A stretch of 64,000 bases of DNA from Candidatus Komeilibacteria bacterium (GTDB lineage: Bacteria > Patescibacteriota > Patescibacteriia > UBA1558), in contig JBLYPW010000001.1 of assembly GCA_048538275.1 (NCBI GenBank), positions 299,924-363,923 on the forward strand, given 5' to 3'. Positions 5,761 through 46,592 of the stretch are shown here, in pieces. Each line of letters begins with the position of its first letter. The stretch's first letter is position 1. The notes under the pieces are model-generated. The model saw only the letters and a program-made list of their open reading frames with translations, was not told the DNA's origin and did no database searches. The position numbers and the translations under genes are program-made.

Positions 5761-6345
5761 ATGTCTATGGAATTGATAAAAAAATTACGCGCCGCTACTG
5801 GTGCCGGTATCAATGATTGTAGTCAGGCTTTGGCAGAAAATGATAATGATTATGATAAAGCCTTGGCTTGGTTACGAAAGAAGGGTCAAAAAATTGCCAG
5901 CAAAAAACAGGATAGAGAAATCAAAGAAGGATTGGTGGACGCATATATTCATCCCGGTGGCAAGGTCGGTGTATTATTAGAAGTGGGTTGTGAAACTGAT
6001 TTTGTCGCCAAGAACGAAGATTTTAAGAATTTTGTTCATGAGCTGGCTTTACAGATTGCCGCTACTGACCCGCAGTATATTTCTCCCCAGGATGTGCCAG
6101 AAGATGTGATTGCTAAAGAAAAGGATGTTTATATGGAGCAGCTTAAGAATGAAGGTAAGCCGGCGGAAATGATAGATAAAATAGTAGAAGGTAAATTGCA
6201 AAAATTTTATGCTGATGTTACTCTTTTAAAACAGCCTTATATCAAAGATGATACTCAAACTATAGAAAAGTTATTGACTGATAATATTGCTAAGATTGGT
6301 GAAAACATTCGCATTAATCGTTTCGTGCGTTATTCTCTAAGTTAA
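5761..6345 (+). CDS. tsf: Elongation factor Ts (short ~194-aa form)
   Basis: N-terminal UBA-like IKKLRAATGAGINDCSQAL motif; position after rpsB. Confidence 0.85.
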   Translation: MSMELIKKLRAATGAGINDCSQALAENDNDYDKALAWLRKKGQKIASKKQDREIKEGLVDAYIHPGGKVGVLLEVGCETDFVAKNEDFKNFVHELALQIAATDPQYISPQDVPEDVIAKEKDVYMEQLKNEGKPAEMIDKIVEGKLQKFYADVTLLKQPYIKDDTQTIEKLLTDNIAKIGENIRINRFVRYSLS

Positions 6346-6350
6346 AATTT

Positions 6351-7061
6351 ATGCCCTATGCGGCGCCACAAAATATTGTTATCAAGTTATCAGGTAAAAT
6401 GATGACTGATGATTGTCAGTGGAACTGGCCGCTTATAGCTGCTTTAGCAGCAGAATTTCAAACCCAAGCGCGCTTGGGTTTGTTTGCAGTTTTAGTGGTG
6501 GGTGGCGGTAATGTCATTCGGGGTAGAGAAAGTGATGCGAAGTATTTACCTCGCCAATTTGCTGATCAGATGGGCATGCTAGCCACTAATATCAATGCGC
6601 TGGCTTTAGCTGGTAGTTTGCAGGTGGCGGGTTTAGCTACTCAGGCAATGTCAGCTGTTTCTGTAGATGGCATGTTGCCTAAGATTAGTAAAGGCGCTTT
6701 ACGGCGTGCGCGTAAAAATGGTAGTTGGGTTGTTTGTGGCGGTGGTATAGGAAAAGTAGGGCACTCTACTGATTTGGCGGCCATGGCGCGCGCCGTGCAA
6801 ATTGATGCGGATTTAGTGATCAAATTAACTGATGTGGATGGCGTTTATGACAGCGACCCAGATACTAATCCCCAGGCTAAAAAAATAGCTCATCTAACTT
6901 ATGCGCAGGCGATAAGCCAGAATTTACAGGTCATGGATATAGAAGCTTGGCAATTGGCACAAAGTCATAAGATTCCTACCAGGGTCATACAGTGGTCGCC
7001 TGGTAATTTTACTCAACTAATGCAAGGTGAAAATATTGGCACTTTATTAACAGCCGCCTAA
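6351..7061 (+). CDS. pyrH: UMP kinase-like amino-acid-kinase family protein
   Basis: VIKLSGKMM...VVGGGNVIRG glycine-rich loop; synteny after tsf. Confidence 0.7.
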   Translation: MPYAAPQNIVIKLSGKMMTDDCQWNWPLIAALAAEFQTQARLGLFAVLVVGGGNVIRGRESDAKYLPRQFADQMGMLATNINALALAGSLQVAGLATQAMSAVSVDGMLPKISKGALRRARKNGSWVVCGGGIGKVGHSTDLAAMARAVQIDADLVIKLTDVDGVYDSDPDTNPQAKKIAHLTYAQAISQNLQVMDIEAWQLAQSHKIPTRVIQWSPGNFTQLMQGENIGTLLTAA

Positions 7062-15756: not shown

Positions 15757-17037
15757 ATGAAAGGCGATAAAATTGATAAAATTTATGCGCACGAAATTTT
15801 AGATTCGCGTGGTCATCCAACCGTGCAGGTGACTGTAACCTTGGATAATGGCATGTCCGCCAAGGCAGCGGTGCCTTCTGGCGCTTCTACTGGCGTACAC
15901 GAGGCTTTAGAACTGAGAGATAATGACCAGAGTCGTTTTCGTGGTAAAGGCGTATTACAAGCGGTACAGAATGTCAATACTATAATCAATGATTTATTGC
16001 ACGGCCATGAGATTGGGGATATAGAGGGTGTAGATAAAAAAATGATAGAAGCTGATGGTACTGAGAATAAAAGTAAATTGGGTGCTAATGCAATTTTGGG
16101 AGTTTCATTGGCGGTGGCTCGAGTAGGTGCTATTGCCTCTGGTTTGCCTTTGTACCAATATATTCGTGAAGTTTATAATTTGCAATATGATGGTTGGCGA
16201 TTGCCCACGCCTTTAGTAAACATTATCAATGGTGGTAAACATGCTGATAGTAATTTAGATTGGCAAGAGTTTTGGATAATACCGTCGGGCATCAAAAAAT
16301 ATCCTTTGGCTTTACGGGCGTGTTCAGAAATTTTTCATGCTTTAGGAAGCGAGTTAACCAAAAAAGGTTATGATACGGATTTTGGTGCTGAGGGTGGCTA
16401 TGCTCCTGATGTCAAAGATACTGCCGAAGTTTGGGATATGATTATAGCGGCTATAGCACAAGCCAACTATCAAATTGGTCAGGACATCTATTTGGGTATG
16501 GATGCGGGCGCTTCTACTTTTTATAATACCGGCACCGAGCGTTATCAACTGGATTTGGAAAATAAGTCTTTTACCGCTTCAGAATTGATTGAATATTATC
16601 ATACATGGTTGAATAAATATCCTATTTTAGCTTTGGAAGATGGTTTGGCGGAAGATGATTGGGTTGCTTGGCAAACCATGACGGCAGATAAAGAATTTGT
16701 TGATAAAAAAGTAATCCTGATCGGCGATGATTTGTTTACTACCAATACCAAACGCTTGCAACGTGGCATTGATGAGCATGTAGCTAATTCAATTTTGGTA
16801 AAGCCCAATCAAATTGGCACTTTGACGGAAACAATCGCGGCGGTAAAACTGGCACAAGCAAATAATTATCAAGTGGTTATTTCACATCGTAGTGGTGAAA
16901 CAACAGATGATTTTATCGCTGATTTGACAGTAGCTGTCAATGCTCCTTTTATTAAAACTGGTGCTACTTCTCGGGGCGAGCGGATAGTAAAATATAATAG
17001 ATTATTAGAAATAGCGGAGGAAGTAAATCATGAATAA
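15757..17037 (+). CDS. eno: Enolase
   Basis: Conserved enolase N-terminus (ILDSRGHPTV) and C-terminal SHRSGETTD motif. Confidence 0.9.
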   Translation: MKGDKIDKIYAHEILDSRGHPTVQVTVTLDNGMSAKAAVPSGASTGVHEALELRDNDQSRFRGKGVLQAVQNVNTIINDLLHGHEIGDIEGVDKKMIEADGTENKSKLGANAILGVSLAVARVGAIASGLPLYQYIREVYNLQYDGWRLPTPLVNIINGGKHADSNLDWQEFWIIPSGIKKYPLALRACSEIFHALGSELTKKGYDTDFGAEGGYAPDVKDTAEVWDMIIAAIAQANYQIGQDIYLGMDAGASTFYNTGTERYQLDLENKSFTASELIEYYHTWLNKYPILALEDGLAEDDWVAWQTMTADKEFVDKKVILIGDDLFTTNTKRLQRGIDEHVANSILVKPNQIGTLTETIAAVKLAQANNYQVVISHRSGETTDDFIADLTVAVNAPFIKTGATSRGERIVKYNRLLEIAEEVNHE

Positions 17038-18583
17038 TAAACGATCAAATACGCCATTATTATTAGCCATTCTAGATGGCTGGGGAATTGGTAAACCTAG
17101 CCGCGGCAATGCTATTACTTTAGGCAAAACCCCTAATTATGATAAATGGTGGCGTCATTATAGCCATACCAAGTTATTTACTTCTGGCCAATATGTTGGT
17201 TTGCCACGGGCGCAATTTGGCAATTCAGAAGCGGGGCATTTGAATTTGGGCGCGGGCCGGGTAGTTAAACAGGATTCAGTGCGGATCAGTGATGCAATTA
17301 AAGATGGGCGATTTGCCAAAAATCCCGCTTTTTTGACTGGCCTCCAACACTTACAAAAATATAAAGGTAGAGCTCATGTTATGGGTTTATTATCCGGTAG
17401 CGAGTCGGCTCATGCCGAACGAGGACATTTGTTGGCGGTATTGCAATTGTTAGCCGATCACAAGATTCGGGAGGTTTATTTACATTTATTTACTGATGGT
17501 CGTGATGCGCCTCAACATGATGCTATTAAATTTGTGCGAGAAGTACAAAAAGGTTTTTGTAATGGTGAGCGGATTGTATCCATTGTGGGACGTTATTATG
17601 CCATGGATCGCAATAAACGTTGGGGTAATACTGAGCGAGCATATGAATTATTAACACGTGGTAAAGGATATTGGGCACCTAATCCAGAAGAGGCTATTAT
17701 GCAGGCTTATAATCGCAAAGAGACAGATGAGTTTATAGAGCCGACTAGTATTCGTCCTAAAGAATCAGATAAGCCGATAGTGATTAAAGATAATGATATA
17801 ATTATATTTTATAATTTACGTTCAGATAGAGCACGGCAATTAGCTAAAACATTTGTACAGTCTGATTTTAATAAAAGTAATCTTGGATCTTTTATTCGCA
17901 AGCCGGTATTATCCAATATTAAATTTATTGCCATGACAGATTTTGGTCCAGATTTGGATGAGATTATTACTGCTTTTCCCAGTGAAGATCTCAAAGAAAC
18001 TTTGCCGATGATGCTAAAAGATTTAAGACAGCTGTATATTGCTGAAAGTGAAAAATTTGCCCATGTCACTTATTTTTTTAATGGCGGTTATGCTAATCCG
18101 GTTAATAATGAAAAACGCAGTTTAATTCCATCACCTCATTTGAAGTCTTATGCTGACAAACCAGCCATGTCTATAAATCATTTGGCAGACACTTTATTGT
18201 CTAATATTAAAGAAGATAAGTTTGATTTTTATTGTGTTAATTTTGCTAATCCAGATATGATTGGTCATACCGGTGATTTGGAAGCGGCTATACAAGCCGT
18301 AGAAGTGGTAGATGAAGTTATCGGCAAGATACAGTCAGCTTTGGCGGCTGTGGGAGGTACCATGATTATTACCGCTGACCATGGCAATATTGAAGCCATG
18401 ATTGATTTGAAAACAGGCGAAGTAAATACCGAGCACACAGACAATCCCGTTCCTTTCATTATTATCAATGAACATAAATATCGTTTGCGACGAGGAGGTA
18501 GTCTCGCCAATGTCGCGCCGACTATTTTAGATTTATTGGATTTACCCAAGAGCAAGCTGATGACTAAGTCTTTGTTAAAATAA
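17030..18583 (+). CDS. gpmI: 2,3-bisphosphoglycerate-independent phosphoglycerate mutase (copy 1)
   Basis: LAILDGWG, catalytic Ser context FGNSEAGHLNLGAGR, TDGRD, TADHGN motifs. Confidence 0.85.
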   Translation: MNNKRSNTPLLLAILDGWGIGKPSRGNAITLGKTPNYDKWWRHYSHTKLFTSGQYVGLPRAQFGNSEAGHLNLGAGRVVKQDSVRISDAIKDGRFAKNPAFLTGLQHLQKYKGRAHVMGLLSGSESAHAERGHLLAVLQLLADHKIREVYLHLFTDGRDAPQHDAIKFVREVQKGFCNGERIVSIVGRYYAMDRNKRWGNTERAYELLTRGKGYWAPNPEEAIMQAYNRKETDEFIEPTSIRPKESDKPIVIKDNDIIIFYNLRSDRARQLAKTFVQSDFNKSNLGSFIRKPVLSNIKFIAMTDFGPDLDEIITAFPSEDLKETLPMMLKDLRQLYIAESEKFAHVTYFFNGGYANPVNNEKRSLIPSPHLKSYADKPAMSINHLADTLLSNIKEDKFDFYCVNFANPDMIGHTGDLEAAIQAVEVVDEVIGKIQSALAAVGGTMIITADHGNIEAMIDLKTGEVNTEHTDNPVPFIIINEHKYRLRRGGSLANVAPTILDLLDLPKSKLMTKSLLK

Positions 18584-18589: not shown

Positions 18590-20176
18590 ATGTTTGAAGA
18601 CAGACCAAAACCAGTTGTGTTGCTTATTTTAGATGGCTGGGGAGTAGCGCCAGCTTCCAAGGCCAATGCTGTGACTTTGGCGGATACCAAAAATTTAGAT
18701 AGCTATATTTTGCAGTATCCGACAGTAACCTTGCAGGCGGCAGGAGAAGCTGTGGGTTTGTCTTGGGGAGAGATGGGTAATTCTGAAGTTGGACATTTAT
18801 CTTTGGGCAGCGGTAAGATTATTTATCAAAGTTTACCTCGTATTACTCGGGCCATTTCTGATCACTCTTTTTTTACCAATGAAGGGTTTATTAATGCCAC
18901 CAAGCATGTCAAAGAAAATAACAGTGCCTTACACTTAATGGGATTACTTTCAGATGGTAGCGTACATAGTTATAATGAGCATCTTTATGCTTTGGTAGAA
19001 ATGGCCAAGGAGCAGGAAGTCAGTAATGTATTTATACATATTTTCTTAGATGGCAGAGACACGGCCTATAATGCGGGTATAAAATTTGTTAAAAAATTGG
19101 AAGATAAGCTCAAGCAAATTGGCTTGGGCAGGATTGCTACTGTATCTGGTCGATATTATGCTATGGATAGAGATAATCATTGGGAGCGTATCGCGAAAAC
19201 TTATTGGGCTATGACTGAAGGGGAGTCAGATAAGCAATATAACAATGCCACAGACGCTATTCAAGCTTCTTATGATGCGGGTGTTTATGATGAAGAATTT
19301 GTGCCAGTAGTGATTAGCGATAATAATAAACCGGTAGCTATTGTAGGCGAAAAAGACGCCATAATATTTTTTAATTATAGATCGGATAGAGCACGGCAAT
19401 TGACCAAGGCCTTTGTTTTACCCAGTTTTGATAAGTTTGATAAGCCGCGACCTTATTTAAAGGATTTATATTTTGTCACTATGACAGAATATGAGAAAGA
19501 TTTACCGGTTAAGATCGCTTTTCCTCCTATACAGGTAGAAGCGTCTTTAGCAAAAGTTATTTCTCAAGCAGGATTAAGCCAATTACATATAGCGGAAACT
19601 GAAAAATACGCCCATGTTACATTTTTTTTCAATGGGGGCAGAGAAGAAAAATTTGCAAATGAAGATAGGATTTTGATTCCATCGCCTCGTATTCCAGCCT
19701 ATAATGCGCAGCCAGAAATGAGCGCCGGTCAGGTGACTAATAAGATAGTAGAGGCGGTCAAACAGAATAAATATGATTTTATAGTGGCAAATTTTGCTAA
19801 TCCAGATATGGTGGCTCACACCGGTGATATAAAAGCTACCATCATCGCTTTACAATTTATTGATCAGTCAGTTGGTCGTATAGTAGAGGCGGTCTTGGAA
19901 CGTAATGGAGTGATATTGATAACTGCTGATCATGGTAATGCTGAAGAGTTGTTTAAATTACAGACCGGAGAAATAGACAAAGAACATTCTACTAATCCCG
20001 TGCCACTCTATATTATTGCTAATGAATTGAAGGACAAAACTATTATTCCCGGAGTTAATCCTCAAAATCTATGCCAGCAAACGCCAGTAGGTATTTTGTC
20101 CGATGTAGCGCCAACTATTTTGCATATTATGGGATTAAAAAAACCCGCTACCATGACAGGCACGAGTTTGATTTAG
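18590..20176 (+). CDS. gpmI: 2,3-bisphosphoglycerate-independent phosphoglycerate mutase (copy 2, divergent tandem paralog)
   Basis: LLILDGWG, MGNSEVGHLSLGSGK, LDGRD, TADHGN motifs; immediately downstream of copy 1. Confidence 0.85.
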   Translation: MFEDRPKPVVLLILDGWGVAPASKANAVTLADTKNLDSYILQYPTVTLQAAGEAVGLSWGEMGNSEVGHLSLGSGKIIYQSLPRITRAISDHSFFTNEGFINATKHVKENNSALHLMGLLSDGSVHSYNEHLYALVEMAKEQEVSNVFIHIFLDGRDTAYNAGIKFVKKLEDKLKQIGLGRIATVSGRYYAMDRDNHWERIAKTYWAMTEGESDKQYNNATDAIQASYDAGVYDEEFVPVVISDNNKPVAIVGEKDAIIFFNYRSDRARQLTKAFVLPSFDKFDKPRPYLKDLYFVTMTEYEKDLPVKIAFPPIQVEASLAKVISQAGLSQLHIAETEKYAHVTFFFNGGREEKFANEDRILIPSPRIPAYNAQPEMSAGQVTNKIVEAVKQNKYDFIVANFANPDMVAHTGDIKATIIALQFIDQSVGRIVEAVLERNGVILITADHGNAEELFKLQTGEIDKEHSTNPVPLYIIANELKDKTIIPGVNPQNLCQQTPVGILSDVAPTILHIMGLKKPATMTGTSLI

Positions 20177-20630: not shown

Positions 20631-21431
20631 ATGCATTTATTATACATTATAATCAGCTCTATAATCCAGAGCTTAACAGAATTTATTCCAGTTTCCAGTT
20701 CTGGGCACTTGGTTATTTGGCATAGTGTGTGGTCAGCGCCACTGAATAGTTTGCAGCTGGATATCGTTTTACATCTCGGTTCTTTACTGGCTTTAATAGT
20801 TTATTTTCGTAAAGATATCATTCGGTTGTTTATTGCCTGGCTATATACTTGGCGCAAGCAGTGGACAGCGACGGGTAAATTGGCATGGTGGTTAATTTTG
20901 TCTACTGTACCAGCCGCTATGGTTGGCGTTTTGGCGGGACAGTGGGTGACAGATAATTTACGAAGTGATAGTACGGTGATAGCTATGCTTATTATTGTTG
21001 CTTTGTTGTTTTTATTGACTGAGAAAATAGCTCAGGGCAAACGTGATTTACAGCAATTAAATTGGCGCGATGCTTTATTGATTGGTATTGCTCAGTGTTT
21101 AGCATTTGTGCCTGGTACTTCTCGTAGCGGTATCACCATCGTGGCTGCGATGTTGTTAAAAATAAAAAGAGCGGAAGCCGCTCGCTATTCTTTTTTATTA
21201 GCAATTCCAACCTTGCTAGGAGCTAGTTTGAGTGGTGTAAGCATGATGGTTGACCAGGGGATAGATAGAGCTAGTATGATTATGGCAGGTATTGGATTGG
21301 TCATAACTTTTGTTTTATCTTGGGGGGTTATAAGATTTTTCTTACGCTATTTGCGTCAACATAGCCTCGTTCCTTTTGCTTTATATCGTATTGTTTTAGC
21401 GCTGGTACTTTGGCTAATATTATATTATTGA
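20631..21431 (+). CDS. uppP: Undecaprenyl-diphosphatase (BacA/UppP)
   Basis: LTEFIPVSSSGHL and PGTSRSGITI motifs. Confidence 0.85.
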   Translation: MHLLYIIISSIIQSLTEFIPVSSSGHLVIWHSVWSAPLNSLQLDIVLHLGSLLALIVYFRKDIIRLFIAWLYTWRKQWTATGKLAWWLILSTVPAAMVGVLAGQWVTDNLRSDSTVIAMLIIVALLFLLTEKIAQGKRDLQQLNWRDALLIGIAQCLAFVPGTSRSGITIVAAMLLKIKRAEAARYSFLLAIPTLLGASLSGVSMMVDQGIDRASMIMAGIGLVITFVLSWGVIRFFLRYLRQHSLVPFALYRIVLALVLWLILYY

Positions 21432-22085
21432 TAGTGTGATAGGTAGGGTACGAAAGGCTTGATAGCTATTATTGTAATCCGACATCATTTCCGATAATTT
21501 TAATTTGCGAGGACTACCAAAAATTTGTACTACTACCACCTGTTGTTGTCCCTGCAGTTTACCCATGATCACGGCTAGGCCAATTTCACGGTATTTGTCA
21601 TTTAAGATATTAGCACGGTGTCCGCTAGAATCCATCCATGCCTTCATTACATCTTTGTTGGTTGTAAAACCAGCTGCTAAATTTTCGCCGATAATCTGAT
21701 AGTCATAGCCAACATCATCTATCCAGCTACTGAAAAAACTGCCATCGGGAGCATTATGAGAAAAAAAATTATTCGCTATTAAATCAGTCGCCTTAGCTTG
21801 TGCGGCGGCGTTTAATTTATCGTTCACAGTCAATGGTTGTAATTGCTTGATGTCACGTATCTCATTGGTTAGCATAATCAAGTCATTGGCAGCTATACTG
21901 CTATCCAATAAGCTGGGTGATTGAGAGGTGGCACTTGGTACAAAAAAAAGTAAGCAACCAGAGCCTACTATTATTAATACAGCTATAGACAACCAAAAAA
22001 TAGCTTGGTGTTTATTTATTGACATTTGGACCCTCGTTTTTGTTTTTGTGGCTAATTTTGGCCACTTATATATACAGTATATCAT
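21420..22085 (-). CDS. CAP/SCP (PR-1-like, YkwD-type) domain protein with N-terminal TM anchor (start possibly at 22025)
   Basis: ATDLIANNFFSHN...GENLAAGF...AWMDSSGHRANIL CAP-domain motifs. Confidence 0.65.
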   Translation of the reverse strand: MIYCIYKWPKLATKTKTRVQMSINKHQAIFWLSIAVLIIVGSGCLLFFVPSATSQSPSLLDSSIAANDLIMLTNEIRDIKQLQPLTVNDKLNAAAQAKATDLIANNFFSHNAPDGSFFSSWIDDVGYDYQIIGENLAAGFTTNKDVMKAWMDSSGHRANILNDKYREIGLAVIMGKLQGQQQVVVVQIFGSPRKLKLSEMMSDYNNSYQAFRTLPITLSII

Positions 22086-22308
22086 ATTCTTTGGTAAAAG
22101 TCAAGGTTAATAAATATCATGCCAGATTTTAGAATCAGTCGTTGAGGATGATTGATTATCTAATCATTTAAACTATTGATTGTCAAGGCAAATAAAATAG
22201 GCTCAATCATTTGATGGAGCCTTTTGCCAACCTGTTTGGTGACCATGCATCCGATGCGGTTGTCCCGTAGATGCATTATTCCTTAGCAGGAATAAGGTCA
22301 ATGCTTCG

Positions 22309-22611
22309 CTACAGCCTGGTGATTAAAAAGATATCATAGCCTTGTGCCTTGATTTCTTCGAGACTATGCTCGCAGTATCCAGACAAGCGACCACGTACCT
22401 TGATTACCAGAGCTTCATCGTAGCCTTTACAGACATGACGTTCTGTAACAGGCTCAATGCCAAGCAACCTAACCGTGTCGTGACCGACAAAATTTTCGGC
22501 GACTTGGGCGAAAGCCTTGGCCTGGTCCAGGTCAATACGCCTCATCTGCCAATTGCCACATTCCAGCAACATGGTAGTAGAGAGTATGACCTTGCGGTTA
22601 ATGGTTTCCAT
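22309..22611 (-). CDS. Small DUF1874 (STIV B116-like) family protein, tentative
   Basis: 100-aa ORF in a locally GC-rich segment; pattern VILSTTMLL...VGHDTV..LLG....YDEALVIKV...LS.EEI resembles DUF1874 recalled from memory; overlapping + strand ORF judged a shadow. Confidence 0.4.
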   Translation of the reverse strand: METINRKVILSTTMLLECGNWQMRRIDLDQAKAFAQVAENFVGHDTVRLLGIEPVTERHVCKGYDEALVIKVRGRLSGYCEHSLEEIKAQGYDIFLITRL

Positions 22612-22876
22612 GTTTGAACTTCACTGGCTAAGCGGCTGCGCCTGGAGCCCTATTAGCCTGTATGGTAACCGTTTTTGGAAACCTAACCTTAAAAAGAACG
22701 ATAGCGTACCTTAGCATAGGATATTTTTTTTGTCAAGCCCCTGTACTTGATGACCACCTTTCGGGCACTTTCATATATTTTTAGTTGATTTGTAGACTTG
22801 TGAGGTGGGGTTTGTATTAATGTTACAGATTTTTTTAACATTCTTGATATTAATAGTTTATTATCTACATATTAAA

Positions 22877-22903
22877 TTGACAATTGTTAGGGGGGGGTAT
22901 AAT
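22877..22903 (+). promoter_or_regulatory. Sigma70-like promoter (TTGACA-15 nt-TATAAT) with G8 homopolymer tract in the spacer
   Basis: TTGACA at 22877-22882, TATAAT at 22898-22903, spacer contains gggggggg (22890-22897); 80 bp upstream of repeat-protein gene. Confidence 0.45.
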
Positions 22904-22985
22904 TAAGATGAAGCTAGATGTTTATTTTTACTATAATATAATTCAGTCTAGTCTAAATCTATTATTTAACACTTAATTAAATTCT

Positions 22986-24734
22986 ATGAGTATTGAAAAA
23001 AATGGTGGTTTTAAGTCTCCAGAATTTAGCTCAACACCTTCAATAGAACAAAAAGAGCAAGCAAAAGAAAAACTTTTACAAGAAGCATTGCAAGAGAGCT
23101 ATGAGTTAAATTTAAATGCGGGTCATATTGTACATGCAGAAAAAATTAGCGAAGACAGAGGAATAAGTTTAAACTCAGAAATATTCCAGATAGCGTATGA
23201 TGCACAAATAAATAAGGGTGATATATATACCGCTACTAGGGTAGCTAAGTTAGCCGAAGGCAAGGGATTGAAATTAACCCCCAAAGCTGAAAGTTTGCAA
23301 TTAGGCTATGAAAAAGCAATGGAAATGGGAAAAAAATACGATATTGAAAAAATAAAACAGTTTGCCCAAGAAAAAGGCATTAAACTAACAGTAAATAAGG
23401 ATGCTATCCAAAAATGGTGCGATTATGCGCTTGAGAACGGTGATAGTGGCATATTAAAAGAAATAAAAAAAATTGCCAAAAAAGAAAGAATAGAATTAGA
23501 AGTAAAAAAAGAAGTGTTGCAAAAGACTTATGATAAAAAACTTAATGAGTTAGAAGATTTGATCTCATTAACAGAAATTGAACAATTTGCTAAACAGAAT
23601 GACATTGATTTGGAAGTTAATAAAAAGATTCTGCAACAAGGGCTTGAAAATTATATAGAGTATGCAGCACCTAGAGAACCATATGAAAACTTGTTAGCTG
23701 ATGTTAAAAAAATTATAAATTTTGCCACTAAGAAGGGTGTTAAGATAAATATAGATGATATAGATGACAAAAAGGTACAAGAACTATATGAGAAAGGGTT
23801 AATAAATGGGGACAGTAGAATGATCAAAGGGATGAAAAATCTTGCCAGTGAGAAAGGCATAGATTTGGATATTCAAAAGTTAGATTTACAGGAATTATAC
23901 GATAAGTTTTTTACAGATGGGGAAATATATATAGCGCAACAGATAAAAGAAATAGGTGACGAAAATGGTTTAGAAGTTAAAGTCCCGAGTAAAGAAAAAA
24001 TACAAAAAAATTATGATATACTGTTAGCTTCGGGTAATCAATATGGAGCACTTAAAATACAACAATTTAGTGGTGATAATGGAATAGCGATTGAAATAAA
24101 AAAGGATATGTTACAAAAGGCGTATGAGACAATTTGTAATGGTAACATGGAGAGTGTGAACCTTAATTATATGTCCGACCTTGAAGAAATGGCTAAAGAT
24201 AATGGATATGAGATTGAAAACGCTAAAGAGCTAATTGAAAAAACTTATATTGAAGTTATTCATAATTTGAATATGGGCCATGCTGGTGCCAAAAGGGAGG
24301 GGCTAATAAAAAAACTAAAGGAACTAGGCTCTGATCTAACCTATGAAGATGTTATCAAGATGGATTATCTTGATTATTTAAAAGTACCAGAAGAGCAAAG
24401 ATTGAGCATACAAAAGACAATGGAAATAGATGGTGCGCCCATAAGGGTTAGCTTTTATGGTCAGAAGCAAGAAGCTCCGGTACATGGTAAGTTTATCATC
24501 GGCACAAGTACAGATAATGGTTTAGAGTTTGTTTTCGATAGTACATTAGGAGAACATGGGGATATTGGCAACAAATATAATTTAGAAGTGATTGGTGGTG
24601 GTTGGTTGGAAATAGATGAAATAAACAAGAAAATAAAGATTCACAGAAATAGTGAGGATTATGGTTATGAACCGAGGTCTATATCTAAAAGAGTGATAGC
24701 TGATACTTTCTCTGATTACGAGATTATAGTGTAG
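22986..24734 (+). CDS. Tandem-repeat protein (~9 helical repeats of ~38-40 aa) with distinct C-terminal beta-rich domain; no signal peptide; strongly AT-rich
   Basis: Repeating I..FA...GI.L.V.K..LQ..Y.....NG pattern through residues ~100-420; composition ~30% GC versus ~40% in neighbours. Confidence 0.6.
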   Translation: MSIEKNGGFKSPEFSSTPSIEQKEQAKEKLLQEALQESYELNLNAGHIVHAEKISEDRGISLNSEIFQIAYDAQINKGDIYTATRVAKLAEGKGLKLTPKAESLQLGYEKAMEMGKKYDIEKIKQFAQEKGIKLTVNKDAIQKWCDYALENGDSGILKEIKKIAKKERIELEVKKEVLQKTYDKKLNELEDLISLTEIEQFAKQNDIDLEVNKKILQQGLENYIEYAAPREPYENLLADVKKIINFATKKGVKINIDDIDDKKVQELYEKGLINGDSRMIKGMKNLASEKGIDLDIQKLDLQELYDKFFTDGEIYIAQQIKEIGDENGLEVKVPSKEKIQKNYDILLASGNQYGALKIQQFSGDNGIAIEIKKDMLQKAYETICNGNMESVNLNYMSDLEEMAKDNGYEIENAKELIEKTYIEVIHNLNMGHAGAKREGLIKKLKELGSDLTYEDVIKMDYLDYLKVPEEQRLSIQKTMEIDGAPIRVSFYGQKQEAPVHGKFIIGTSTDNGLEFVFDSTLGEHGDIGNKYNLEVIGGGWLEIDEINKKIKIHRNSEDYGYEPRSISKRVIADTFSDYEIIV

Positions 24735-25000
24735 AATTAGTTGATAATTTTTAGCACATCAGTTCAGACACTCTAATTTAAATTTATTATCATCAAACAT
24801 AAATTTAATATGTTTGGTTAATTTCACAATTTCTAATTCTAATATAATTTGTGAAAACAGGGGTGTCCGAAAGGTATCTCATCTTTTGCAGCCCATTATC
24901 AGGAATAATTATACAAACAAATATTTTGTTCACTCGGGTATAATAAGTTTTGTAGTTAGTTGGTTTTTAGTTTATAATAAAAAAAGAATAATTATTTTTT

Positions 25001-25633
25001 ATGGCTTACCAAAATATTGATCAGCTAATAGACTACCTCAAGGGCAAAAGTGTTTTGCATTCACCCCGTCTGGAGCAAGCCTTACGTATAGTTGATAGAG
25101 GTGATTTTGTGCGTCCGGAAACAAGGCCTTGGGCCTATTGGGATGAGCCTTTGTCTATTGGTTATGGCCAAACAATATCACAGCCGGCAGTAGTAGTATT
25201 TATGTTAGAATTATTGGCTCCGCAAATGGGGGAGAATGTTTTAGACGTGGGTTGTGGTTCTGGATGGCAAACGGCTTTATTGGCCTATTTGGTTGGTCGA
25301 GAAGGTAAGGTGACTGGTTTAGAAATAAAGCCACCTTTAGTACAACAAGCCAAGGTTAATTTAGTACCTTATGAATTTAGTAATATTGAAATTTTATTAG
25401 CTGATGGTCACGAGGGGTTTAGCTTGGGCGCGCCGTATGACAAAATTATTATAGCGGCGGCTACGGAAGAGTTGCCAGAGGTTTTGTGGCAACAATTGAA
25501 ACCGGATGGTGTGATGGTATATCCTGAGGGTAAAGGTGCCCAATCTATTGTCCGTTTGCGGAAAAATCTGGATGGCACTAGAGAACGTTCTAGTTGGCCA
25601 GGATATTTATTTGTACCATTTGTGCGACAATGA
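25001..25633 (+). CDS. pcm: Protein-L-isoaspartate O-methyltransferase
   Basis: LDVGCGSGWQTALLAYLVG SAM motif and PIMT-family architecture. Confidence 0.8.
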   Translation: MAYQNIDQLIDYLKGKSVLHSPRLEQALRIVDRGDFVRPETRPWAYWDEPLSIGYGQTISQPAVVVFMLELLAPQMGENVLDVGCGSGWQTALLAYLVGREGKVTGLEIKPPLVQQAKVNLVPYEFSNIEILLADGHEGFSLGAPYDKIIIAAATEELPEVLWQQLKPDGVMVYPEGKGAQSIVRLRKNLDGTRERSSWPGYLFVPFVRQ

Positions 25634-26721
25634 AGATAAAGAATAAAAATTTATATGCGGTTATATTAGCCGGCGGTATTGGTAGCCGACTATGGCCTTT
25701 ATCACGTCGCTTGCGACCTAAGCAAGTGCAGTCAATTTTGTCTGGGCCTACATTGTTGCAACAGACTTTTAAGCTGTTACGACGGGGGTTACCACCTAGT
25801 CATATATATTTGGTGACTACTAGAGATCAGCTTTCTATTATTCGTAAGCAACTACCTGAATTAGCTGCTAAAAATTTTATTGTAGAACCACAACGTCGGC
25901 ACACGGCAGCAGCTATTGCCTTGGCCAATAAGGTGATTTCTCTTCAAAATCCACAAGCTATTATCGTGACTACCAATACTGATGGCTATATTCCGCAGGC
26001 AGATAAATATTGGCAAGCCATTGACATGGCCACTCGGGCGGTGATGCGGAATACTGATTGTGTAGTTGCGATTGGCATCAGACCGACTTATCCGGAAACC
26101 GGCTATGGCTATATACATTTGTCCAATAAGCTATTTGGCAATTTGTATCAGGTAAAAAGCTTTAAAGAAAAACCATCATTATCACGAGCTAAATATTTTG
26201 TTTCTCGATCAGATTATTTATGGAATAGCGGAATCTATATTTTCAAGGCAGTGACTATGCAATCCCAGTTGGCTAAGTATTTGCCTCTGCATGACAAAGT
26301 ATTATCAGCTTGGCAGGCTCATACCAATAGCAAAAATCGTTGGGCCAAGTTATCCTACTATTATCATCGTCTCCCTATGATTTCTATTGACGTGGGCATT
26401 ATAGAAAAACAAAAAAATTTATTGTCACTGAGTGCTGATTTTATTTGGCAAGACATTGGACATTGGCGAGCGGTCAGAGATATTATTGCCAGTTTGCCGG
26501 ATGAGCTAACCGATAAGAGCGGTGGTAAGGTTTTGAACTTGACTGGTAAGAATAATTTGGTAAAAAATTTGTCCGATAAATTAGTGGTGACAATTGATTT
26601 GCAAGATATGATCGTGGTAAATATGGATGACGTGGTATTGGTTTGTCCTAGTAGTAGTGCGCAAAAGATAAAACAAGTAGTGAGTAGACTAGAGAAAAAT
26701 GGTTGGGAAGAATATTTGTAG
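25630..26721 (+). CDS. Mannose-1-phosphate guanylyltransferase-like nucleotidyltransferase (start chosen at MKIKNK, 4-bp overlap with pcm)
   Basis: YAVILAGGIGSRLWPLSR...PKQ nucleotidyltransferase N-terminus. Confidence 0.7.
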   Translation: MKIKNKNLYAVILAGGIGSRLWPLSRRLRPKQVQSILSGPTLLQQTFKLLRRGLPPSHIYLVTTRDQLSIIRKQLPELAAKNFIVEPQRRHTAAAIALANKVISLQNPQAIIVTTNTDGYIPQADKYWQAIDMATRAVMRNTDCVVAIGIRPTYPETGYGYIHLSNKLFGNLYQVKSFKEKPSLSRAKYFVSRSDYLWNSGIYIFKAVTMQSQLAKYLPLHDKVLSAWQAHTNSKNRWAKLSYYYHRLPMISIDVGIIEKQKNLLSLSADFIWQDIGHWRAVRDIIASLPDELTDKSGGKVLNLTGKNNLVKNLSDKLVVTIDLQDMIVVNMDDVVLVCPSSSAQKIKQVVSRLEKNGWEEYL

Positions 26722-30071: not shown

Positions 30072-30536
30072 ATGTTGGATATTATTTTATTGACAGTGGG
30101 TAAGACTAAGACGCCTTATTATCAGGCGGCGATATCTGACTATGTAAAGAGAATCAAACCATATGCGCGCTGGCAGCAGCAGATAGTGAAGGCGGTGCCT
30201 TGGCATTCTATTCATCAACAACAGCAGGTCCGCCAGGAAGAAGGGGAGCGGTTAAAAAAAGTTTTGGCTAAAATGCAGGGTCGTCGCATTGTTCTATTGG
30301 ATGAAAAGGGCACGGCCATGACCTCTTTGCAATGGGCGCAGGAGATTCAGCCAATGCAAGGGATCTGTTTTGTCATTGGTGGGGCTTTAGGATTAGCGCA
30401 AGATATTTTGCAGGCTTATCCGGAACATTGGTCTTTGTCAGATTTGACGCTGCCGCATGAATTGGCGCAGCTAGTATTGGTAGAGCAGCTTTATCGGGTA
30501 GCTACTATTTTGCAGGAAAAAACTTATCATTTTTAA
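30072..30536 (+). CDS. rlmH: 23S rRNA (pseudouridine1915-N3)-methyltransferase RlmH (SPOUT)
   Basis: YbeA-family length and motifs (VLLDEKG...FVIGGALGL...ELAQLVLVEQLYRV). Confidence 0.8.
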   Translation: MLDIILLTVGKTKTPYYQAAISDYVKRIKPYARWQQQIVKAVPWHSIHQQQQVRQEEGERLKKVLAKMQGRRIVLLDEKGTAMTSLQWAQEIQPMQGICFVIGGALGLAQDILQAYPEHWSLSDLTLPHELAQLVLVEQLYRVATILQEKTYHF

Positions 30537-31926: not shown

Positions 31927-34068
31927 TTATAGAGGAATGACGAATAGGGTATGAGGTGTTATTAGGAAGGCGCGTTGCTGATCTTCTTGAATGCTCATAG
32001 CTTGTAGGTCAATGAATTTGTCGGAATGGTATTGTTTGATCAATTTGCCATTTTTATCCAGTACTATTAAACGATTATTCTCTGGATCCAGTAAATAAAT
32101 ATTAGCACTTTCGGGAGAGGTAAATAGTTGGCTGGGATTATTAAGCGGCGGGTATATGTTGATAGCTGGGAAATCTATTTGTCTGCCAGCGCTGAGTTTG
32201 ATAATTTTATTATTTTGTAAAATATAAATATTACCGTCAATGGCCAGATCCTTGGCATCAGTAAGATCAATATTGTCTTTTAGCCATAAATCGGGCGATT
32301 GAAAAGCATTGCCGACTAGGCGATGACGATAAACTTGATCGGTTTCATTATCTAATACATATAAGCGATTGAAAAAGCTAGTGGCTGATGAGACATTTTT
32401 TAATCCAGCACTATATGATATGGGCATGGGTTGCAGAGCATCATTGTTTACTTGGAAAATATTATTATTTTGATCAAAAATAATTATGCTATCATCCGGG
32501 GCTATGGTAGTAAATTTAATTTTTTGCATATTGGCAGGATAGGGAGTGGTGCTGAATTCTTTTTGTGTAAAATTATAATTTACCCAATCATTGCCATTGG
32601 TAAAAAGATAAATATTATCTTCTTGAGCCATAACTTTTTGCCAACTTATTGTTTGGTTTAGTTGATCACTACTTATGATCGCTACTGGCTCTGCTATATC
32701 CATAATATTCCAAATACGCTCGGTCAAAATATTAAGCTGTTGTCGCCAACCATCAATAGCATTTTGGTAATTTTTATCTGTCACAGGAAATTGATCGCGT
32801 AAAATAATCAGATCGTCTAGTAAAGTTTGAGCGCGTAGACGGTCACCATATATTAAAGCAGCTTCTATATTTTCACTTTTGTTGGTAAATTCATTATTGA
32901 TAGTAGTGAATTGTTCTTCCGTTAATCCCTGCGGGCCTTTAGATAAGAGGATAATAACTATTATTATGATAGCCGCAGCAATTAAGCCAGTGGCGACCAA
33001 CTTTTGTTTTAGGTTTATATGTTTTAGCCATTGCCAGCTCCAAGCACGACGGCGATGAATATTATCTGGATGGATAAGATTGACTATGATATTTTTTAGC
33101 TGCAATGCTATCCAGAGAAGTCCTATGCCTAGATTACGTAGTAACCACCATATTTTTTTTCCTAGCCAATGAAAAAATCTGATTAATAAAGGCATTATAT
33201 TGGATTGGCTGAAAGCGTCTTTCAAATTACTTAAAGTAGAGGTAAATGCTTGCCAACTGGATGGCACGGTCATAATTTGTTGGGTTTGTTTTTGCGTTAC
33301 TATTAACTGGTCTAAAGAAGCTTTGGATTTAACAGTAGTGGCATTATCATGCGGCCTGTTGATTGGCTCCATCGGTGTAATGTCTGGCGTAGACCTGTAT
33401 TCTTCTTCCGCTACGCTATTTTTTATAATAACACTTAAAAAAGAAACATGATCAGAAACCTCTGCCACCATATTTTGAAATTGGGCGGCAGCGGAGAGCG
33501 CCGGTATGGTGGTGATTATTTTTCGTACTTTGTCTAAAGATAAATAGTCAAGGAGAGAATCATTGGTTAACAAAAAAGCAAATCCTGGTTGTAATTGGCC
33601 AGTGATCACATTGGCAAATATTTTTACTGGATTAATAGGTCCATTGTCCTTACCGACAACATCTATAGCTTTTAACGGATGTAGTAAATAACCTTGCCAT
33701 TGACCGAGTAGAGAGATGTTTATAATATTATCTTTAATATTGCCTATGCCAATATTAAGATTTTGAAGAATTTTTTTATTGTGGGGCAAGTTTTGTGGTA
33801 GCCACTGATTTATTTCATTTAAGGAGTATTCTAAAATTTTAGTAGAATCTTCTAATACTGAGCTATAATAGAAATGGTGAATTTTTTCTAAAAATGCTCC
33901 AATAAATTTATCATAATCATTTTCCGGATTATTGATATTGATTAAAACAAAAAGACAGCCATTTTTAGCTAGCTGAGCAGGATCATTTTCCACGTATATA
34001 TCGCCGATGGAATCGGCGTGTACAGGGTCTTGTATAAAAATTTTAGCTGTTTGGATATTGGCTGCCAT
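31927..34068 (-). CDS. Membrane protein: N-terminal cytoplasmic domain, 2 TM helices, C-terminal beta-propeller-like extracytoplasmic repeat domain
   Basis: 713-aa ORF; TM segments in the middle; C-terminal repeated IYLLDPENNRLIVLDKNG / LYVLDNETDQVY / IYILQNNKII blade-like motifs. Confidence 0.5.
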   Translation of the reverse strand: MAANIQTAKIFIQDPVHADSIGDIYVENDPAQLAKNGCLFVLININNPENDYDKFIGAFLEKIHHFYYSSVLEDSTKILEYSLNEINQWLPQNLPHNKKILQNLNIGIGNIKDNIINISLLGQWQGYLLHPLKAIDVVGKDNGPINPVKIFANVITGQLQPGFAFLLTNDSLLDYLSLDKVRKIITTIPALSAAAQFQNMVAEVSDHVSFLSVIIKNSVAEEEYRSTPDITPMEPINRPHDNATTVKSKASLDQLIVTQKQTQQIMTVPSSWQAFTSTLSNLKDAFSQSNIMPLLIRFFHWLGKKIWWLLRNLGIGLLWIALQLKNIIVNLIHPDNIHRRRAWSWQWLKHINLKQKLVATGLIAAAIIIIVIILLSKGPQGLTEEQFTTINNEFTNKSENIEAALIYGDRLRAQTLLDDLIILRDQFPVTDKNYQNAIDGWRQQLNILTERIWNIMDIAEPVAIISSDQLNQTISWQKVMAQEDNIYLFTNGNDWVNYNFTQKEFSTTPYPANMQKIKFTTIAPDDSIIIFDQNNNIFQVNNDALQPMPISYSAGLKNVSSATSFFNRLYVLDNETDQVYRHRLVGNAFQSPDLWLKDNIDLTDAKDLAIDGNIYILQNNKIIKLSAGRQIDFPAINIYPPLNNPSQLFTSPESANIYLLDPENNRLIVLDKNGKLIKQYHSDKFIDLQAMSIQEDQQRAFLITPHTLFVIPL

Positions 34069-34128
34069 ACTTTACAAAAAATACTTAATTTTATTATACT
34101 ATATTTACCTTTGCCAGTAAAACTGCTT

Positions 34129-34692
34129 ATGTTAGAACAATTATTTAGTTCGCGCACCAGAGAAAAGCTATTAAAGCTGTTTCTTTTTAATCCTGATAAA
34201 CGTTATTATGTACGGGAAATAACTCGTTTGATAGGGGAGCGCTTAAATTCGGTGCGACGTGAGTTAGCCAATTTGGAGAATTTTGATTTGATTGGCACGG
34301 AAGATTTTGAACGGCGTAAATATTATTTTCTTAACAAAGACTTTGTTTTGTTGAAAGAAATGACTGATTTGTTTATTAAGGCTCGCCTTTTGTGGGAGAA
34401 ACGCATTGCTGATAAGATAATAAAGTATGACGGTGTCAAATATTTATCATTATTAGGTTTTTTCGTCAATGATCAAGAGGCTAAGACAGATATGTTGTTG
34501 ATTGGTCGTATTAATAAGAAAGATTTAGCCGCTTTCGTGCGCGAAGTAGAAAAGTTGACCAACCAACCCTTGCGTTATACACATTTTACTATGAATGAAT
34601 ATAGTTATCGTCAATCCATGACCGATCGTTTTTTGTATGATCTGCTCAATCGCCAGTCTATCGTCTTATTGAATAAATTAACTAAACGCTAG
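34129..34692 (+). CDS. Winged-helix transcriptional regulator-like protein (start chosen at MLEQLF; ORF track extends to 34018)
   Basis: N-terminal wHTH-like segment SRTREKLLKLFLFNPDKRYYVREITRLIGERLNSVRRELANLENFDLI. Confidence 0.4.
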   Translation: MLEQLFSSRTREKLLKLFLFNPDKRYYVREITRLIGERLNSVRRELANLENFDLIGTEDFERRKYYFLNKDFVLLKEMTDLFIKARLLWEKRIADKIIKYDGVKYLSLLGFFVNDQEAKTDMLLIGRINKKDLAAFVREVEKLTNQPLRYTHFTMNEYSYRQSMTDRFLYDLLNRQSIVLLNKLTKR

Positions 34693-40300: not shown

Positions 40301-40375
40301 GCCGCCTTCGTCTAGTGGTTAGGACGCCAGGTTCTCATCCTGGTAACAGGGGTTCGACTCCCCTAGGCGGTACCA
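40301..40375 (+). tRNA. tRNA-Glu (anticodon CUC)
   Basis: Manually folded cloverleaf: acceptor GCCGCCT/AGGCGGT (G1-U72 wobble), D-arm GTCT/GGAC with 8-nt loop, anticodon stem CCAGG/CCTGG, loop TTCTCAT, 4-nt variable, T-arm AGGGG-TTCGACT-CCCCT, encoded CCA. Confidence 0.8.
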
Positions 40376-45476: not shown

Positions 45477-46592
45477 ATGCAGAAGGATATTTTTTTTATT
45501 GAAGCGGCCGCTATTCTTATCGGCACCACCATTGGCGCCGGTATTTTAGCTATCCCTTATGTTATAGCGGAAGCCGGTTTTTTAAGCGGTTTAGTGATGG
45601 TGATAGTAGTGACACTCGTGATGTTGGTATTAAATTTAATGGTTGGGCAGCTGGCATTGGGTACCAAAGACTTGCATCAGCTACCGGGCTATGCGCGTAA
45701 GTATTTGGGTCGTACCGGAGAACGGCTAATGTTTGTATTGATGGTAGCCTCTATTTATGGAGCTTTGCTGGCATTTGTTATTGGTGAGGGTAGAGTATTA
45801 GCAGATTTGTTTGGTGGTAGCCCTATGTTAAGTAGTTTAATCTTTTTGGCGGTGGGCGCCATTATTTTATATTTTGGTCTGAGTATTATCAGGCGTTTAG
45901 AATTATTATTGACACTGGTCATTTTTTTTATAATATTATTGCTTTTTTGGTGGAGCAGGCCATTTATTGCCTGGGATAATTTAAAGGTTTTTTCTTGGCA
46001 AAATATATTATTGCCCTATGGAGCGGTATTCTTTGCCGGCATGGGCTTTTCTTCTATCGCCCAGATGCGAGAAGTTTTAATTGGTAGGGAAAAGTTATTG
46101 CGCAAAGCTATTGTGGTGGGTACTTTTGCACCAGCTATCATTTATGTCATTTTTTCTTTATTGGTAGTAGGTGTTAGCGGTAGCGCTACCAGCGAAGTCG
46201 CCACTATTAATTTGGGCCACATTATCGGACCGCAGATGATAATCTTTGGTAATATTTTTGCTTTTGTTACCATGGCCACCACTTTTCTTGCTTTAGGCTT
46301 GGCTTTGAAAAAAGCTTTTATCCAAGATTTGCGGCGTTCAGCTAATGTAGCTTGGTTATTAACCTGTTCTGTACCGGCAGTTGCTTTATTATTAGGTTTG
46401 AATAGTTTTGCTAATATTGTCAGTATTGTGGGGGCAGTAGCCGGCGGCTTACAAGGCGTGCTCATTGCATTGACCTGGTATTATATGCATCAGATGGAGC
46501 GTAATCCAGAATATCGTTTACCACATACTGTTTGGCTTTTATTGCCGGTGTTAATAGTCTTATTGGCGGGCTTGTTCAGCGTTTGGTGGTGA
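45477..46592 (+). CDS. Amino-acid permease-like transporter (Trp/Tyr permease-like fold)
   Basis: 11-TM-like 371-aa protein, N-terminal IGTTIGAGILAIPY motif. Confidence 0.45.
   Translation: MQKDIFFIEAAAILIGTTIGAGILAIPYVIAEAGFLSGLVMVIVVTLVMLVLNLMVGQLALGTKDLHQLPGYARKYLGRTGERLMFVLMVASIYGALLAFVIGEGRVLADLFGGSPMLSSLIFLAVGAIILYFGLSIIRRLELLLTLVIFFIILLLFWWSRPFIAWDNLKVFSWQNILLPYGAVFFAGMGFSSIAQMREVLIGREKLLRKAIVVGTFAPAIIYVIFSLLVVGVSGSATSEVATINLGHIIGPQMIIFGNIFAFVTMATTFLALGLALKKAFIQDLRRSANVAWLLTCSVPAVALLLGLNSFANIVSIVGAVAGGLQGVLIALTWYYMHQMERNPEYRLPHTVWLLLPVLIVLLAGLFSVWW

Follow-up and report, generated by a model that had tools for sequence, protein, structure and literature searches.

A GC-rich single-gene islet encoding a divergent DUF1874 protein, with viral relatives, in a Candidatus Komeilibacteria chromosome

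Here we describe a GC-rich islet of 0.5 to 0.6 kb with a single small gene in a 64-kb stretch of a small, AT-rich Candidatus Komeilibacteria genome (contig JBLYPW010000001.1, positions 299,924 to 363,923), hereafter the window, to which all coordinates refer. The gene (22309-22611, minus strand) was delimited as an open reading frame (ORF), assigned through profiles and fold to a divergent branch of DUF1874 proteins (AcrIII-1/Crn2/YddF family), and codes for a putative cyclic tetra-adenylate (cA4) ring nuclease of 100 aa. Our preferred reading, to which we give a probability of roughly 60%, is that the islet is a phage-derived, single-gene cassette of the moron type, its divergent DUF1874 ring nuclease being an orphan in the chromosome of a member of the Candidate Phyla Radiation (CPR). 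Phage morons are transcription units that stand on their own, are atypical in composition, and have been inserted between other genes. The AcrIII-1/Crn2 family consists of enzymes that destroy cA4, the alarm signal of type III CRISPR. Crn2 is the DUF1874 form found beside type III CRISPR, and AcrIII-1 is the viral form (10.1101/778746).

Composition and extent of the islet

A previous examination of this DNA, made from the letters alone (the sequence-only reading), had described the segment 22190-22760 as visibly richer in GC (ca. 50%) than the surrounding genome. The segment is indeed richer, but its GC content is 46.1% (46 to 47% at the 570-nt scale, against a window mean of 38.4%), and higher values appear at smaller scales, with a maximum of 50.7% in 300-nt windows and of 50 to 55% across windows of 60 to 300 nt. 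By raw GC at the 570-nt scale, the islet was the third-highest stretch of the window (z of ca. +2.5), so that raw GC alone is not exceptional. The GC content at third codon positions (GC3) of ORF 22309-22611 was 54.5% versus a mean of 34.2±5.1% (z = +4.0), the highest among the 56 ORFs of the window, and the small gene is compositionally foreign, as had been claimed. The runners-up, both native genes (30072-30536 and 502-1260), reached ca. 47%. The noncoding flanks had 47.7% (22200-22308) and 49.4% GC (22612-22690), versus 30.2±7.0% in intergenic DNA elsewhere in the window and 24 to 29% directly outside the islet. From the 60-nt GC profile and the GC content of the flanks, the islet (a feature without strand) has its core at 22200-22690 and a tail to ca. 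22780. The foreign-looking unit is this segment, i.e., the DUF1874 gene with ca. 110 nt of 3' flank and 80 to 170 nt of 5' flank.

The hairpins that the sequence-only reading had seen in the GC-rich segment are real and are located in the 3' untranslated region of the DUF1874 gene (22186-22308, minus strand), recognized by RNA folding and by the inverted repeat I9. The segment 22186-22312 folded at -43.7 kcal/mol (z = -4.4), and none of 200 shuffled sequences was equally stable. A Y-shaped two-hairpin element (22241-22300), which occurs once within the window, holds the atgcatc/gatgcat and ttattcc/ggaataa stems and is followed by a terminator-like hairpin (22199-22222) with a U-rich tail. On the other side, the 5' leader or upstream flank (22612-22780, minus strand, 43 to 49% GC) may be donor DNA; it showed no significant structure (fold z = +0.29) and no strong Shine-Dalgarno sequence.

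One could suppose that the patch is native and that codon selection related to expression, or an overlapping structured RNA, raised its GC content, given that some native genes are GC3-enriched (the two runners-up above) and that the 3' flank is highly structured. However, the GC3 of the gene is above that of every other gene, the noncoding flanks are equally GC-rich, the 5' flank is unstructured, a search of 22050-23000 against Rfam (at the gathering threshold and at E ≤ 1) gave no match, and homologues are GC outliers in unrelated AT-rich contigs too (see below). A native origin is, in our judgment, scarcely credible.

Assignment of the 100-aa protein to DUF1874

The minus-strand ORF of ca. 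100 aa, with the motifs LSTTMLL, VGHDT, YDEALVIKV, and EEI, was exactly as described, and its proposed resemblance to DUF1874 was borne out both by profile matches to solved members and by the predicted fold. Three assemblies, made from different runs, gave the same protein, with no frameshift or stop codon in any of them. A word-indexed search retrieved, besides the identical protein (annotated as hypothetical), one 58%-identical match, and the closest homologue (P0002) has a precomputed match to PF08960, the Pfam model of DUF1874. A HMMER search with a two-sequence profile (the window protein and P0002) recovered 81 representative clusters; PF08960 was matched by 33 of the 41 clusters that were sampled and, at E < 0.01, by 19 of 24 members of the subfamily to which the window protein belongs.

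Comparison of the single protein with the PDB by phmmer gave only noise (interleukin-2, E = 1.5). Two of our profiles, A2 and A3, matched AFV3-109 (2j6b; E = 2.4e-18 and 3.3e-22, respectively) and AcrIII-1 (6scf, SIRV1 ORF114/gp29; 2.5e-4 and 6.8e-8; 2x4i was also matched), and A2 matched Csx1-Crn2 (8y7f; 3e-11) and STIV B116 (2j85; 5e-9). With a profile made of the subfamily only (A5), AFV3-109 was the sole PDB match (E = 1.2e-4). The AlphaFold2 (AF2) model of the protein had a mean predicted local distance difference test score (pLDDT) of 88.9 and a predicted template modeling (TM) score of 0.81. In the Foldseek search of the PDB, ranks 1 to 17 were all DUF1874 structures; the first 16 had a probability of 1.00 and TM scores of 0.60 to 0.72, rank 17 had a probability of 0.77 and a TM score of 0.51, and rank 18 fell to E = 2. 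At the level of fold and superfamily, the membership of this divergent protein in DUF1874/STIV-B116 is therefore established.

A Pfam scan of the longer members of the subfamily found DUF1874 only, plus one fusion to HTH_17, and no fusions to CARF, HEPN, and the like. The fusion (P0008) carries the HTH_17 domain, which is excisionase/AlpA-like, at its C terminus and fits an association of this branch with mobile elements.

Viral relatives and a recurrent GC offset

The suggestion that the small protein is of a viral type agrees with the origin of its nearest relatives. All close homologues with usable context were found in phage-like or IMG/VR viral DNA, and the relatives in viral or phage-like contigs ranged from 32 to 55% identity. 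The one with 55% identity (L007) belongs to a phage of 57% GC, next to SNF2 helicase, DUF2800/PDDEXK, and Enc34-type single-stranded-DNA-binding genes. Another (L016, 46% identity) is located on a 131-kb IMG/VR contig, where it adjoins genes for ribonucleotide reductase, thymidylate synthase, and topoisomerase II, and three more homologues (L017 to L019) are on IMG/VR contigs as well. A homologue of 58% identity (L001) was found amid small ORFs with weak PHROG matches. A metagenome scan with a five-sequence alignment recovered four loci, including one that is identical to L007, and a scan of viral contigs with the two-sequence alignment found nothing. This setting is in line with the literature, in which AcrIII-1 is far commoner in viruses and mobile genetic elements than beside CRISPR loci (10.1101/778746; 10.1101/2024.09.24.614671).

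The compositional contrast is repeated at these loci. The GC3 of the homologue was 55% in L001, 63% in L016, and 44% in L021, versus 36, 40, and 35%, respectively, for the AT-rich contigs that carry them, and GC-rich, hairpin-rich downstream flanks were present in L001 and L016 too (z down to -4.5). This recurrent offset suggests a frequently transferred cassette originating from GC-richer sources such as the L007 phage. The GC-rich islets of the three contigs are found at 5950-6850 (L016), 1600-2050 (L001), and 1921-2202 (L021), and L016 has an extra GC-rich ORF of 93 aa (6555-6836). The flanks of the window islet had no sequence similarity to those of the L016, L001, and L021 islets; blastn similarity of the islet to the homologue loci was confined to the ORF, and a six-frame translation of its flanks showed no similarity to the neighbors of the homologues in L001 and L007.

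A more far-reaching interpretation is that the DUF1874 gene and its hairpin-dense flanks form a mobile cassette devoid of a recombinase, which would hop among phages and AT-rich hosts, CPR bacteria included, and would have been co-opted here as a stand-alone cA4 sink. Such a cassette would account for the gene being a GC outlier in four or more unrelated, AT-rich settings. We consider this quite improbable.

Active site and the proposed mechanism

The histidine of the G43-H44 motif aligned with that of the GHES/GHQA/GHDS motifs of Csx1-Crn2, AFV3-109, and B116 (the H495A crystal form of Csx1-Crn2 reads GAES at this column, and the wild type reads GHES). H44 corresponds to H47 of SIRV1 gp29, is the predicted catalytic histidine, and is invariant across the subfamily. 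In gp29, H47 is the general acid, and its loss costs >2,500-fold in rate; the side chains that contact cA4 are N8, S11, N13, S49, T50, R66, Q81, and R85 (10.1101/778746). Counted via consensus columns rather than through an alignment with gp29 itself, R58 corresponds to R66, K71 to Q81, R75 to R85, and T46 to S49, and the predicted ligand-binding residues R58, K71, and R75 are spaced like R66, Q81, and R85. The position of gp29 Q81 is a lysine in most bacterial and phage members. Five residues are invariant in the subfamily (S11, H44, A67, R75, and E86), and all of them are present in the window protein.

The branch to which the protein belongs comprises ca. 40 to 50 clusters (at 50% identity) that share a deletion beside the catalytic histidine and a mobile (lid) loop with the motif RLEFGxEY, which comprises residues 72 to 84 in the window protein; a further deletion of two residues precedes YDEA. 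The confidence of the AF2 model drops at the lid (pLDDT of 70 at residues 71 to 80).

By homology with SIRV1 gp29 and with the Csx1-Crn2 of Marinitoga, a homodimer would bury one cA4 molecule at the dimer interface. H44 would serve as general acid, R58, K71, R75, and T46 would hold the ligand, and the mobile loop (72 to 84) would shut over it. The cA4 ring would be cut twice to give A2>P, and cA4-activated effectors would thus be switched off. In a phage, this activity would dampen type III CRISPR signaling. In the present cell, the enzyme would be an orphan that either continues to serve as a cA4 sink or has simply not been lost so far.

An intergenic site with genes absent from distant relatives

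The islet is located in the following gene order: two tandem gpmI genes, DUF212 (minus strand), BacA/UppP, the CAP-domain gene (minus), the 100-aa gene (minus), a gene for a 582-aa protein (plus), pcm, manC, yceG, corA, and tspO; nearly all the window consists of housekeeping genes on the plus strand. The sequence-only reading had named a CAP-domain gene and pcm as the flanking genes, and Pfam confirmed both. The CAP-domain gene (21420-22085, minus; PF00188, 3.9e-19) forms the left edge of a conserved backbone. Its likely true start is at 22025, following the gene call in another assembly (L005), and its candidate promoter (22076-22104; 10 of 12 consensus positions, with TG) is in AT-rich native DNA. 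The gene for protein-L-isoaspartate O-methyltransferase, pcm (25001-25633, plus; PF01135, 4.6e-52), is followed by manC, for mannose-1-phosphate guanylyltransferase (25630-26721, plus; assigned by homologues and synteny), which is the right edge of the backbone, and then by yceG/mltG (Pfam).

A comparison with related genomes had been proposed as a check, and relatives without the interval were indeed found. Five distant contigs (L010, L011, L012, L014, and L015) keep the PAP2/UppP-CAP-ManC-YceG backbone. Three of them (L010, L012, and L015) have the order PAP2, CAP (minus), ManC, YceG; in L011 the CAP gene was not called, yet tblastn placed a CAP-like sequence at the matching position, and L014 has DUF212 (minus), BacA, ManC, YceG. 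The CAP orthologues in L010, L011, L012, and L015 are 35 to 39% identical and match in position and orientation. The gap before ManC is ca. 130 to 235 nt in the five relatives versus 3.5 kb in the window, where the gap between CAP and manC contains the DUF1874 gene, the 582-aa repeat protein, and pcm. Searches with tblastn on these contigs recovered the orthologues of CAP, ManC, and MltG and found no DUF1874, repeat protein, or Pcm. Thus, the proposed insertion between the CAP gene and pcm holds for the CAP side, but the right anchor is manC, since pcm is also missing in the relatives. In our preferred reading, a cassette with its own structured terminator region would have landed in the divergent intergenic region that separates the CAP gene from the manC operon.

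The repeat gene (22986-24734, plus strand), characterized by Pfam, repeat register, and composition, encodes a K/E/I-rich protein (12% K, 11% E, and 11% I) and is the lowest-GC 1,750-nt stretch of the window (32.5%, z = -3.6). Its GC3 is 26.6%, 1.5 standard deviations below the mean, and GC at second codon positions is 0.25; its low GC content is explained mainly by the amino acid composition. The two opposite composition anomalies that had been pointed out next to each other were therefore both measured, but the AT-rich one is largely an amino acid effect. The protein has ca. 7 to 10 degenerate repeats of ca. 38 to 40 aa across residues ca. 45 to 440; no tandem DNA repeats were found in the gene, and no signal peptide was recognized by eye.

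The sequence-only reading took the whole stretch from 22.1 to 24.8 kb, i.e., the DUF1874 gene plus the repeat gene with its G-tract promoter, to be one horizontally acquired module. Both genes, as well as pcm, are missing from the syntenic interval of the five relatives, and the two are divergently arranged, with -35 boxes that overlap back to back. However, their GC3 values are 28 percentage points apart (54.5 and 26.6%, with 34.1% for pcm), the DNA between them is of the AT-rich native type (24% GC), the repeat protein had no match beside the DUF1874 homologues in 12 loci or in phage records, and neither an integrase nor a tRNA nor significant terminal repeats were detected. The module did not withstand these data, and one acquired functional unit appears very improbable to us. 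For pcm, a native GC3 (34.1%, z = -0.02) and an ATGA overlap with manC (25630-25633) suggest an older resident of the intergenic site; when genome contigs were scanned with Pcm, just two proteobacterial loci came up, both irrelevant. It seems that a single permissive, divergent intergenic region has received the three genes as separate layers, and the repeat gene and pcm would be separate additions rather than partners of the ring nuclease. No link of the repeat protein to the ring nuclease was found.

Expression signals

A weak candidate for a promoter of the DUF1874 transcript is a sigma-70-type TTGTCA-17-TAAACT sequence at 22855-22883 (minus strand, 9 of 12 consensus matches), ca. 240 nt upstream of the gene. 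Its -35 box is the one that overlaps that of the candidate promoter on the plus strand. A basic 50-aa ORF (22689-22841, minus; MLKKSVTLIQ...) has no Pfam match; its start follows the predicted minus-strand transcription start by ca. 7 nt, and 77 nt separate its end from the start codon of the DUF1874 gene. It may encode a leader peptide or have arisen by chance.

Upstream of the repeat gene, a perfect TTGACA and TATAAT pair (22877-22903, plus strand) is separated by a 15-nt spacer, 2 nt under the optimum, that contains a G8 tract (22890-22897). Perfect hexamer pairs occur twice in the 64 kb versus 0.09 expected. The tract is the only G/C run of at least seven in the window, yet 43 of 100 shuffled windows contained at least one G8, and G8 is likewise found in L005, the sole other assembly to span the tract. 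Judged from these features, a slipped-strand, phase-variable promoter for the repeat gene is plausible. The second perfect pair (45909-45934) has a T8 in a 14-nt spacer and is inside ORF 45477-46592. A terminator-like hairpin (24860-24880, plus) was identified downstream of the repeat gene by a consensus scan.

Mobile elements and CRISPR systems in the window

No ORF for an integrase or recombinase was found in the interval and no integrase in the 64 kb. The sole tRNA of the window, at 40301, is far from the islet, and candidate att sites or target-site duplications around the islet were rejected, as only chance-level repeat matches of 11 to 20 nt were present. The recombinase, tRNA/att site, and direct repeats of a classical genomic island are thus lacking. 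Unlike AcrIII-1 genes, which are carried by viruses, plasmids, or integrated elements, the gene resides among housekeeping genes (DUF212, BacA, CAP, PCMT, ManC, YceG, and CorA). There are no CRISPR or other interspaced or tandem repeat arrays within the window and no Cas10/Csm/Cmr or true CARF protein among the PADLOC matches listed (25 of 35 families; 56 window proteins). A type III CRISPR-Cas locus, in or next to which Crn2 is defined, is therefore not found within the 64 kb.

This setting bears on whether the protein could be a host-domesticated regulator of the Crn2 type that resets a cA4-based defense (type III CRISPR or another cyclic oligoadenylate [cOA] system) encoded outside the window. 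The gene is intact and of full length and keeps the subfamily-invariant residues, its product does not differ among the three assemblies, DUF1874 proteins are known to serve cells as Crn2 (10.1101/778746), and the contig is 487 kb long, of which the 64-kb window was inspected. On the other hand, Crn2, defined by its adjacency to type III loci, is rare (seven loci in a 2024 survey; 10.1101/2024.09.24.614671), there is no type III locus within ca. 22 kb upstream or 41 kb downstream, and the un-ameliorated GC3 favors a recent arrival over long domestication. We regard such a regulator as distinctly unlikely. Under the phage-derived reading, capture of the gene looks recent.

Among the defense-related matches, those to the PADLOC models mad2, mad8, and CARF_LolE_TM were discarded as probable cross-matches of ABC transporters/permeases and methyltransferases; NCBIfam identified ABC transporter proteins of the MacB/LolCE type among those of the window, and the one mad2 match that was traced was a PrmC-like methyltransferase. 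A weak match of ORF 34018-34692 to Csa3 was also rejected, because its alignment falls on the C-terminal, non-CARF portion of the model and Pfam lends the ORF no support. PADLOC Cas4 models matched one window protein (best E = 4.2e-10), which was absent from the ten ORFs checked and is probably a stand-alone PD-(D/E)XK nuclease, with no other cas genes or arrays in the window.

Evidence weighing against a phage-derived ring nuclease

Several observations run counter to our preferred reading. The Pfam check that had been suggested gave a divided result: PF08960 was matched and the fold and profiles agree, but the direct match (E = 0.0057, profile positions 12 to 99 of 101) scored 17.2 bits, under the gathering threshold of 26. 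In the input alignment of the AF2 model, canonical PF08960 sequences predominated, a possible source of bias. PHROG, PADLOC, and NCBIfam had no match for the protein, and among 50,697 phage records, none was matched by the protein (tblastn) or by the islet (blastn). The nearest homologues of ManC are at most 42% identical, and most of the syntenic contigs have 60 to 62% GC; with relatives this distant, insertion here and loss elsewhere are inseparable, and the event cannot be dated. For the DUF1874 gene, the consensus scan and folding yielded no convincing promoter or ribosome-binding site. Finally, the search of the 64 kb revealed neither a cOA synthase nor a CARF/SAVED effector nor a CRISPR array and, hence, no known source of substrate.

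Other points concern the catalytic machinery. In the subfamily, gp29 N8 and T50 are replaced by S11 and V47, and five residues are deleted directly after the catalytic GHxT. The lid of the window protein reads RLSGYCEH versus the subfamily consensus RLEFGREY, a divergence seen within the subfamily in the window protein only, and all the solved or assayed DUF1874 members that we compared are outside this branch. With the branch deletion and the diverged lid, the activity or the substrate may differ or be lost. Catalysis on cA4, predicted from the conserved histidine and the basic residues, is uncertain, and the deletion and the lid weaken the prediction.

The same features would fit a decaying or repurposed relic that does not cleave cA4 and is either inert or acts by protein binding like SIRV2 gp37. 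The diverged lid with its low model confidence and the weak expression signals point in this direction, and non-Acr roles of DUF1874 proteins have been reported, SIRV2 gp37 being described as an inhibitor of a host lysine methyltransferase (10.1101/2023.01.10.523387); by analogy, a moonlighting or noncatalytic role of the window protein is possible. However, the reading frame is intact in three assemblies, and the catalytic histidine and the three basic ligand residues are conserved. A relic of this kind seems unlikely to us, and we retain the phage-derived ring nuclease as the preferred reading.

Comparison with known systems

The window protein shares with the AcrIII-1 proteins (SIRV1 gp29, STIV B116, AFV3-109, and that of phage THSA-485A) the fold (TM score of 0.64 to 0.72), a single domain of ca. 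100 aa, the catalytic histidine in a GH motif, the Arg/Lys/Arg positions, and viral closest relatives. In contrast, it is only 15 to 20% identical to the solved members in Foldseek structural alignments, and its gene is in a bacterial chromosome amid housekeeping genes, with no recognizable virus. With the cellular Csx1-Crn2, it has in common the domain, the conserved equivalent of H495, and a chromosomal gene, but it stands alone rather than in fusion with an effector, and no type III locus, cas10, CARF effector, or array accompanies it in the 64 kb. YddF of Bacillus subtilis ICEBs1 is, likewise, a bacterial stand-alone DUF1874 protein derived from a mobile element, and the canonical homologues retrieved carry the name "YddF family"; however, YddF is inside an integrative conjugative element, whereas the window cassette has no element genes. 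Cleavage of cA4 by YddF has been demonstrated (10.1101/778746).

As to phage morons, the islet resembles them in being a single gene of atypical GC content with a terminator-like structure and an intergenic position, where synteny supports insertion, and its homologues in the phage contigs L016 and L001 behave likewise. It differs in being located in a cellular chromosome instead of a prophage, and its promoter is only a candidate (the 9-of-12 match above).

The C terminus of the 582-aa protein has a PHPT1/Janus-Ocnus-like domain (PF05005; E = 3e-6, 27.7 bits versus a gathering threshold of 23), matched over residues 517 to 579 (24534-24722) and profile positions 48 to 108 only. These ca. 65 residues align with human PHPT1 via GGG...KKIxIH...DYE, and the EHGDI motif at residue 523 presumably corresponds to the YHADI of PHPT1. 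The domain is, however, shorter than PHPT1 and fused to ca. 450 residues of degenerate, helical-looking repeats. In sequence searches of the PDB, human PHPT1 was the only match of the repeat protein, and a weak one (E = 0.26), and a single-sequence AF2 model of the domain was unusable (pLDDT of 43). The C-terminal region as a whole spans 24393-24731, a PHPT1-like domain on ca. 450 aa of repeats in a CPR bacterium. PF05005 appears to be a mainly eukaryotic family, and if so, a bacterial, repeat-fused version would be unusual.

Other features of the window

The tandem gpmI paralogues (17030-18583 and 18590-20176) are ca. 40% identical to each other's orthologues, and the pair is also present in L013. 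No Pfam match was obtained for ORFs 61588-63510 (plus), 31927-34068 (minus), and 34018-34692 (plus). Of these three, the 640-aa ORF combines the lowest GC3 of the window (20.9%; z = -2.6) with a high AT skew, in which it resembles the repeat protein, and the 224-aa ORF matched the PADLOC candidate family PDC-M05A (3.9e-20).

Significance

Neither the family nor its chemistry nor its mobility is new; the value of the present case is in an uncharacterized subfamily, its location in a CPR genome, and the recurrent behavior of the gene as a GC-rich islet. Our literature search found no link of AcrIII-1 to Patescibacteria or CPR, where mobile elements and genes for defense and counterdefense are poorly charted, and the islet would be a small, clean example of phage-to-cell gene capture in a CPR genome. 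Should the gene prove to have been co-opted as a stand-alone cA4 sink, an "off switch" for cyclic oligoadenylates would exist outside any CRISPR locus in an episymbiotic CPR cell, possibly with another cyclic-nucleotide specificity due to the shortened helix and the altered lid. If cA4 is a substrate of this branch, the sequence criteria by which anti-CRISPR ring nucleases are recognized would be broadened, and if its substrate differs, another signaling molecule targeted by these proteins would be indicated.

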